Shown: positions 1 to 1,196 of the stretch, piece after piece | Layout of the letters: the number at the start of each line of letters is the position of its first letter | Position numbering within the stretch: the first letter of the stretch is position 1 | DNA from: Escherichia coli | GTDB lineage: Bacteria; Pseudomonadota; Gammaproteobacteria; Enterobacterales; Enterobacteriaceae | Length of the DNA: 1,196 nucleotides | NCBI RefSeq assembly: GCF_003334385.1 | Contig: NZ_QOWN01000122.1 | Direction: 5' to 3' (one strand) | Program-made: the position numbers and the translations under genes | The notes under the pieces: model-generated | Told to the model about the DNA's origin: nothing | Database searches by the model: none | What the model saw: the letters and a program-made list of their open reading frames with translations, nothing else

Positions 1-1196
1 CCCTTTAACATCCGGATGGTCAGGGAGACGGCGGACAGCACCACGGACCAACTGCAGAACAGAACGCTGTGGTCGTCATACACCGAAATCATCGATGTGA
101 AACAGTGCTACCCGAACACGGCCATTGTGGGGATGCAGGTGGATGCGGAGCAGTTTGGTGGTCAGCAGATGACGGTGAACTACCATATCCGCGGTCGCAT
201 CATCCAGGTGCCGTCAAACTATGACCCGGAAAAACGCACGTACAGTGGTATCTGGGACGGCAGTCTGAAACCGGCATACAGCAACAACCCGGCCTGGTGC
301 CTGTGGGACATGCTGACTCACCCGCGCTACGGGATGGGAAAACGCCTGGGGGCGGCGGATGTGGACAAGTGGGCGCTGTATGCCATCGGGCAGTACTGCG
401 ACCAGACGGTCCCGGATGGATTCGGGGGCACAGAGCCGCGGATGACCTTTAATGCGTACCTGGCACAACAGCGTAAGGCGTGGGACGTTCTCAGTGATTT
501 CTGCTCGGCGATGCGCTGTATGCCGGTATGGAACGGCCAGACGCTGACGTTCGTTCAGGACCGCCCGTCGGATGTGGTGTGGCCGTACACCAACAGCGAT
601 GTGGTGGTGGATGATAACGGCGTGGGGTTCCGCTACAGCTTCAGTGCCCTGAAGGACCGGCACACGGCGGTGGAGGTGAATTACACCGACCCGCAGAACG
701 GCTGGCAGACCTCCACGGAACTGGTGGAAGACCCGGAAGCCATACTGCGCTACGGACGCAACCTGCTGAAGATGGACGCGTTCGGCTGTACCAGCCGCGG
801 TCAGGCCCACCGTGCCGGGCTGTGGGTGATAAAGACCGAACTGCTGGAAACGCAGACGGTTGATTTCACACTCGGGTCTCAGGGGCTGCGGCACACACCC
901 GGTGACATTATTGAAATCTGTGATAATGACTATGCCGGGACCCTGACCGGCGGACGTGTCCTGTCCATCGATGCTGCCACCCGCACCCTGACGCTGGACC
1001 GTGAAGTGACACTTCCGGGGACAGGTGCATCGACGGTGAACCTGATTAACGGCAGCGGTAAGCCGGTAAGTGTGGACATCACCGCACACCCCGCGCCGGA
1101 CCGGATACAGGTCAGTACCCTGCCTGATGGTGTGGAGACATACGGGGTGTGGGGACTCTCCCTGCCGTCACTGCGCCGTCGCCTGTTCCGCTGTGT
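1..1196 (+). CDS. J: Internal fragment of a lambdoid phage central tail fibre / tip attachment (host specificity) protein, gpJ family; 5' and 3' ends lie outside the window
   Basis: Seen in sequence: frame 1 (codon phase 0 at base 1) is open across all 398 complete codons (1..1194, plus 2 trailing bases), with no in-frame stop. Recognised from memory, not from a search: long stretches of the translation match lambda gpJ, e.g. PFNIRM...TPDSTTDQLQN.TLWSSYTEIIDVKQCYPNTA, YSGIWDG..KPAYSNN.AWCLWDMLTHPRYGMGKRLGAADVDKWALY.IGQYCDQ.VPDGFGGTEPR, KAWDVLSDFCSAMRCMPVWNGQTLTFVQDRPSD, FRYSFSALKDRH.AVEVN, ELVED..AI.RYGRN..KMDAFGCTSRGQAHRAGLW.IKTELLETQTVDF, PGD.IEICD.DYAG..TGGRVL, TRTLTLDRE.TLP, LRRRLFRCV. 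G/C-rich third positions (ctg, ccg, acg, gcg) are typical of an expressed enterobacterial or phage gene. No start codon with a ribosome-binding site and no stop, so the gene is partial at both ends. Confidence 0.93.

Follow-up and report, generated by a model that had tools for sequence, protein, structure and literature searches.

Divergence from lambda J along an Escherichia coli prophage tail-tip gene fragment: a probable domain-specific substitution rate, and recombination

Why does the similarity of this J gene fragment to the J gene of phage lambda fall so sharply towards one end, and does the fall reflect the ancestry of that segment or a property of the protein domain it encodes? The window, by which we mean the whole 1,196-nucleotide stretch of Escherichia coli DNA analysed here, is 76% identical to lambda at both the amino acid and nucleotide levels. 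A first-pass annotation noted that this divergence is uneven, and this is indeed so: identity is 53% (aa) and 61% (nt) across nt 960-1196, compared with 82% and 80% across nt 1-959, and 37 of 78 residues differ from lambda in the 3′ part versus 58 of 320 elsewhere (Fisher p = 2.6e-7). Amino acid identity is only 42% at nt 1000-1130, and an unbiased maximum chi-square scan picks out nt 1018-1122 as the most divergent segment, with 24 of 35 residues different (permutation p ≤ 0.003). Identity does fluctuate over short windows when a pair is 76% identical, and there are smaller dips at aa 226-255 and aa 356-395; nonetheless, the Fisher and permutation values and the presence of the dip in independent lineages refute a chance fluctuation along a uniformly diverged gene, to which we assign virtually no prospect of being correct.

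An internal piece of a lambdoid J gene

Frame 1 of the + strand is open across all 1196 nt, the remaining frames being rich in stop codons, and residues 1-398 of its translation align with aa 176-573 of lambda gpJ with zero gaps at the identity given above. The fragment (nt 1-1196, + strand) comprises these codons plus 2 nt, with both the start and the stop codon absent. A phmmer search matches the gpJ chains 8iyk_J and 9e7m_Ja in the PDB (E ~1e-220), and the NCBIfam profile lambda_TipJ (NF049904) scores 920.8 bits over profile positions 176-573 of 1163 for the 398-aa fragment; the NF049904 cut-off of 1950 bits applies to the whole protein and is out of reach for a fragment, and it implies 1.7 bits per residue, compared with 2.3 for the fragment. 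Near-identical full-length alleles carry the RefSeq name 'gpJ: phage attachment tail tip protein J'. The full-length J of E. coli DETEC-S792 contains all six J Pfam families (6/6) in the order FNIII-A_GpJ, Phage-tail_3, Ig_J, Ig_J_second, Phage_Tail_Tip and Ig_GpJ_C, of which only Phage-tail_3 and part of FNIII-A fall within the window. This architecture, together with the colinear match to gpJ, shows that the window is an internal piece of a lambdoid J gene. The genes around the S792 allele are the tape measure gene and tail genes L-K-I-J, followed by lom and stf, and the same J neighbourhood (tape measure, M, L, K and I upstream; lom and stf downstream) is present in every retrieved phage locus; the window itself has no flanking genes, and its neighbourhood is read from the loci of these relatives.

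The domains can be followed from left to right. Nucleotides 1-120 (+ strand; lambda aa 176-215) encode the C-terminal part of the Ig-like FNIII-A domain, inserted in HDII-ins, which is 90% identical to lambda at the amino acid level and has low synonymous divergence from it (pS 0.24); the limits of this domain have been given as aa 72-215 (PMC10721106), and Pfam FNIII-A_GpJ corresponds to aa 86-207 of the S792 full-length allele. The conserved hub core follows at nt 121-921 (+ strand; lambda aa 216-482), spanning HDII-ins, HDII, HDIII and HDIV as far as strand β24 and having 81% amino acid identity to lambda, with Pfam Phage-tail_3 located at nt 466-951 (+ strand; aa 331-492). Next comes the HDIV-inserted β-sandwich or 'OB' barrel at nt 922-1182 (+ strand; lambda aa 483-569, ~87 residues), which has been described as inserted between β24 and β25 and missing from T5 pb3 (PMC10721106), and as an 'adorned OB domain' in the HDIV loop (PMC11101478). 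The peak of amino acid divergence, nt 1018-1122 (+ strand; lambda aa 515-549), lies within this barrel and has a family entropy of ~2.8 bits; Pfam provides no coverage of aa 493-608 in the S792 full-length allele. Conservation resumes at nt 1183-1196 (+ strand; lambda aa 570-573) with the start of HDIV strand β25 (LFRC...), the strand itself extending over aa 570-578 (PMC10721106), and the sequence LFRCVSIREN is identical in lambda and the S792 full-length allele. The window carries the HDIV hub domain with its inserted β-barrel and, as predicted, the gpJ fold. The variable stretch (gpJ aa 496-573) is almost wholly inside the barrel, and the window stops four residues into β25.

This map allows the early description of the divergence to be refined. 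The variability at the 3′ end is real, but it is bounded, with identity returning to 86-90% at aa 566-610 in the S792 full-length allele. The block at nt 240-570, described as nearly identical to lambda, is so in protein (91% aa, with sub-blocks at 97-100%), but this overstates the match in DNA (87% nt). All of the peptides quoted are present in the translation, although the long one is encoded at nt 1015-1173 rather than at about nt 1000-1130, and the proposed anchor residues GSG.PVSV, PDGV and LFRC are common to both proteins, except that the first residue of the quoted 'DGSG' is N in the window. The region belongs to the hub and not to the host-range-determining fibre tip. The window is a mid-hub piece of an ordinary E. 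coli-type prophage J; the C-terminal domain expected to bind the receptor, LamB or another porin (aa ~1000-1132), is beyond the window.

The closest relative is the prophage J of E. coli DETEC-S792 (WP_271290539.1), with 99.7% nucleotide and 100% amino acid identity over the window and four mismatches, all of which are synonymous; there is no exact nucleotide match in the collections searched, these four mismatches being the best. Phage PhiR12_2 J is 98.9% identical at the nucleotide level over the window and 100% over nt 960-1196, and the J genes of Stx-converting phages are at ~96%. Set against the 76% nucleotide identity to lambda, these values bear out the early view that this is not lambda itself. 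From end to end the window protein is identical to a J protein annotated in RefSeq. The gene, its domain structure and the mosaicism of lambdoid phages are already established, and there is little new biology in its identification. Of 5,426 complete E. coli genomes, 4,485 contain J homologues, and the copy number per genome has a median of 3 and reaches 14.

Conservation within the gene reaches deepest at nt 190-476 of the window, for which blastn finds matches, at 66-69% identity, to tail genes from Ralstonia, Pseudomonas, Burkholderia, Edwardsiella and Klebsiella phages. At the very left end, nt 1-32 match exactly a 32-nt segment of Aeromonas phage AP1 (MT713136.1, 242063-242094, in a 254-kb record) of which nothing else matches; this may be a coincidence, a contaminant or a short tract that the two have in common. 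We also note that J is often damaged or rearranged in these prophages: the VT1-Sakai J (L008 2476-5948) is annotated as split in two by mutation, and that of PhiR12_2 (L003 2476-5340) stops after 955 aa, with a distinct ORF annotated 'tail fiber protein' coming after it. A 291-aa ORF on the opposite strand (nt 214-1089, - strand) was considered as a conserved antisense gene and rejected, as the synonymous sites of J are not constrained; two internal stops interrupt it in each of three close alleles (Stx1_EH1995, Stx2c_JNE090279 and phage 2851), and codon composition (60% GC) is its most likely origin.

Amino acid replacement and synonymous change in the barrel and the core

A segment acquired from a more distant J lineage and one whose protein product simply changes faster can be separated by comparing synonymous and nonsynonymous change in many pairs of alleles, and we therefore prepared a codon alignment of the window with 15 J alleles (eight window-type, six lambda-type and Gifsy-1), which has no indels in the range of the window. 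Relative to lambda, the core (aa 216-482) has dS of 1.00, dN of 0.121 and omega of 0.12, and the insert (aa 483-569) has dS of 1.16, dN of 0.390 and omega of 0.34. The proportion of synonymous sites that differ is 0.59 in the insert versus 0.55 in the core, a difference of 0.04 with a bootstrap confidence interval of -0.10 to 0.18, but the insert/core pN ratio for the same pair is 2.73 (bootstrap 95% CI 1.9-4.0). Among codons that specify the same amino acid in both phages, synonymous changes are present in 22 of 47 in the insert and 86 of 256 elsewhere (p = 0.10). Along the gene there is an island of high replacement, with pN at 0.25-0.41 across aa 491-565 and falling to 0.10 at aa 566-595, through which pS stays steady at 0.53-0.70. 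The between-type pS (~0.55-0.6) is near saturation, such that a moderately older origin of the insert is compatible with this comparison taken alone.

The same contrast is seen in four independent classes of comparison. For the 48 between-type pairs the insert/core ratios are 1.10 (pS) and 2.73 (pN); for the 28 pairs within the window type they are 1.75 and 7.1, for the 15 pairs within the lambda type 1.28 and 3.4, and against Gifsy-1 0.92 and 2.4. A dip at aa 495-566 with recovery at aa 567-611 appears in all of the distant pairs tested, these being lambda/P0138, P0093/lambda, P0093/Gifsy-1, S792/P0135 and S792/P0138, pairs chosen outside the history of the window.

A broader view is provided by 7,332 relatives found among 1.84 billion cluster representatives, and it was this library that supplied diversity, the best 120 matches in the protein database being mostly partial, near-identical and of little diversity. 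Of the best 150 of the 7,332 relatives, ~110 span the insert, which is 79-92 aa long and whose identity is below that of the core in every case, and in 102 representatives of 50%-identity clusters the column entropy is 2.46 bits in the insert versus 1.57 in the core (Mann-Whitney p = 7e-14). Insert identity also follows core identity monotonically in 77 database proteins, with a core at 98% accompanied by an insert at 93%, 91% by 86%, and 81% by ~53%. In 50,697 phage records there are 150 window-type cores (at least 90% identity) and 149 window-type inserts (at least 80%), and neither these records nor the 77 database proteins contain an allele that pairs the core of one type, window or lambda, with the insert of the other.

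Some truncated-looking proteins (P0131, P0132, P0134, P0136, P0137 and P0140) were considered as candidates for naturally insert-less forms, but they are fragments of lambda J or internal-deletion chimeras. In two of them, P0137 and P0140, an N-terminal hub of the lambda type, with 96-99% identity to lambda, is fused to a window-type C-terminal receptor-binding region that is 87-88% identical to S792 J and 58-63% identical to lambda.

Taken together, the pN/pS contrast, the recurrent dip, the family-wide entropy and the matched counts of cores and inserts indicate that the excess divergence is a property of the domain and not of allele ancestry. In every lineage examined the barrel evolves faster than any other module of the J hub, and the 3′ dip is probably, with some confidence on our part, a domain-specific substitution rate of the HDIV-inserted barrel and mainly not mosaicism; with the barrel accumulating replacements faster than the core, the unevenness relative to lambda mainly reflects domains that differ in rate. 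The barrel is a discrete module in the HDIV loop, between strands β24 and β25, that retains its length, its buried hydrophobic residues and, as predicted, its fold, while taking amino acid replacements about 2.5-7x faster than the core of the hub around it. This core would be held by its fit to gpL, gpM, gpI and the neighbouring J subunits, and the barrel, as a peripheral decoration domain, would be under weaker purifying selection (omega ~0.34 vs 0.12), with the time since divergence of the window and lambda likely similar in both. In a predicted structure the window-type barrel superposes on that of lambda at 1.4 Å, and from the descriptions in the structural papers the barrel appears to be solvent-exposed and peripheral.

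An alternative source of rapid replacement is diversifying selection, with the barrel being a functional surface turned over by positive selection; it might bind LPS or sugars of the outer membrane weakly, touch a partner that itself varies, or be recognized by host defences. Omega is well below 1 in every comparison, however, at 0.34 between types and 0.08-0.23 within the clade; the structural papers on gpJ assign the barrel no function or ligand, and the matches of its modelled fold are generic EF-Tu domain-II-like barrels. We consider diversifying selection unlikely, and infer that relaxed constraint and not positive selection lies behind the excess of replacements. The more specific proposal that the barrel is a functional and rapidly adapting surface, either a secondary adhesin for cell-surface glycans or the portion of the tail tip that host defences or exclusion systems recognize, seems to us quite unlikely; were it true, the family-wide hypervariability would represent an arms race and a second specificity site beyond the C-terminal receptor-binding domain.

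Two other candidates were set aside. Mutagenesis of the diversity-generating retroelement (DGR) type would target A residues, and the 100 differences from lambda in nt 922-1182 have no A bias (26 at lambda A and 23 at window A). Docking of side fibres as the role of the variable domain conflicts with the Ur-lambda structure, in which the Stf collar sits where gpV meets gpM; the paper describing that structure gives the J barrel no role.

Recombination within J

The patchiness of identity to lambda had been taken at the outset as typical of mosaic genes, and this is correct to the extent that J genes do recombine. Among nine close alleles the PHI test gives p = 0.001 and the four-gamete minimum is Rmin = 15, and the differences between the window and its nearest relatives are clustered (PhiR12_2, p = 0.0015; PhiR12_1, p = 0.0005; also PhiR5_1 and 783R2; range p = 0.0005-0.01). 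Both marks of a recombinant allele, incompatibility and clustered differences among related alleles, are present. The nearest relative varies by segment, with PhiR12_2 being 100% identical at nt 960-1196 and PhiR12_1 the best match at nt 1-959.

Two short tracts illustrate the scale of these events. A nine-substitution patch at nt 51-162 (+ strand) is carried by the window, and eight of the nine changes also by S792, whereas the other close alleles lack it; it accounts for 9 of the 13 differences from PhiR12_2, none of which lie past nt 861. To judge by this pattern, recombination or conversion on a fine scale produced the tract at nt 51-162 during the history of the window itself, although no donor of the patch was found in the allele panel. 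The second is at the other end of the window, where PhiR12_1, having no differences at nt 421-968, differs at 19 sites within nt 969-1173. At nt 1158-1173 it differs from the window at 10 of 16 nucleotides, with several of its states matching lambda and Gifsy-1, and this looks like a short gene-conversion tract inside the barrel. Within the window-type clade there are conversion-like clusters of 3′ differences at nt 1005-1019 and nt 1158-1173, and together with the within-clade pS ratio of 1.75 they show that recombination adds part of the barrel's variability within the clade.

Exchange between the allele types can also be seen. In the finished genome of E. coli PS1Thumoskin9 (NZ_CP180607.1; L018 2301-5777) the J gene is a clean lambda-type/window-type recombinant: informative sites are lambda-type at 161 of 174 positions up to J nt 790 and window-type at 217 of 244 after nt 792. 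The breakpoint corresponds to window nt 265-267 and adjoins a 21-nt run identical to lambda at nt 268-288 (+ strand). A longer run of 41 identical nucleotides at nt 496-536 (+ strand), in the block of lowest pS, adjoins a junction at nt 489-495 in P0030, which is encoded on a metagenome contig (L017; ENA ERZ504850 NODE_2659, 3001-6692) with 1.7x coverage and with J split into two ORFs. We do not accept this contig as proof of an inter-type recombinant; with metagenome coverage of this depth and a junction that is uncorroborated, being missing from all 5,426 complete E. coli genomes, it is a possible assembly chimera. That J crossovers adjoin the longest identical runs is where homologous recombination would be expected to place them. 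Homologous or homeologous exchange among co-resident lambdoid prophages has been described (PMC3945230 and PMC2327257 being relevant papers), and the patterns in J fit such a process.

Synonymous divergence from lambda is itself mildly heterogeneous (scan p ~0.03), with the boundary near aa 395 and not at aa 483 where the insert begins, and some mosaic history in the window is therefore to be reckoned with. Two blocks, aa 176-220 (nt 1-135) and aa 326-385 (nt 451-630), have pS of 0.21-0.31 compared with 0.55-0.8 elsewhere, and are compatible with past exchange between the allele types or with constraint at the nucleotide level.

Could the 3′ segment then have come from a more distant J lineage, with a longer or different history? 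The recombination within the clade, the change in nearest relative from one segment to another, the inter-type crossover in NZ_CP180607.1 and the within-clade pS ratio all lend this some plausibility. Against it, pS relative to lambda is not raised in the insert (its confidence interval including zero) while pN is up 2.7-fold, the same dip is present in every distant allele pair and family-wide, no allele with core and insert types swapped was found, and the crossovers at window nt ~265 and ~490 are in conserved blocks and not at the borders of the variable stretch. The signs of a deeper history for the 3′ stretch, namely higher pS and breakpoints at its borders, were not seen, with pS being near saturation. 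Mosaicism is thus very unlikely as the source of the 3′ dip, which corresponds better to a rate specific to the domain. Homologous recombination is superimposed on this rate, through crossovers in conserved blocks and short conversion patches between close alleles.

Comparison with known J proteins and hubs

Protein identity that varies along a phage tail gene is, alone, no evidence of mosaicism, and it is the contrast of synonymous and nonsynonymous change, applied to many allele pairs, that separates a domain's rate from mosaicism. Across the family no other part of the J hub is as variable as the HDIV-inserted barrel, which has no role assigned to it, and this could guide domain-swap experiments.

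Among known systems, the window is closest to the J genes of E. coli prophages and Stx phages (DETEC-S792, PhiR12_2, VT1-Sakai and phage 2851), to which it has 96-99.7% nucleotide identity. The S792 full-length J is 1157 aa compared with 1132 for lambda, and its C-terminal receptor-binding domain, outside the window, is divergent. Similarity to the hub protein of T1 (9L9P) and to gp24-type hub proteins fades where the insert starts, at query aa ~329-340; other J-like hub proteins are those of Sf11 (9OCC) and the F2 pyocin (25VF), with T5 pb3 as an outgroup. Lambda gpJ (8IYK, 8K35, 8XCG and 9E7M) is colinear with the window, aligns without gaps and has the same order of hub domains including the HDIV-inserted barrel, but at 76% nucleotide identity overall and 53-54% amino acid identity in the barrel it represents a different allele type.
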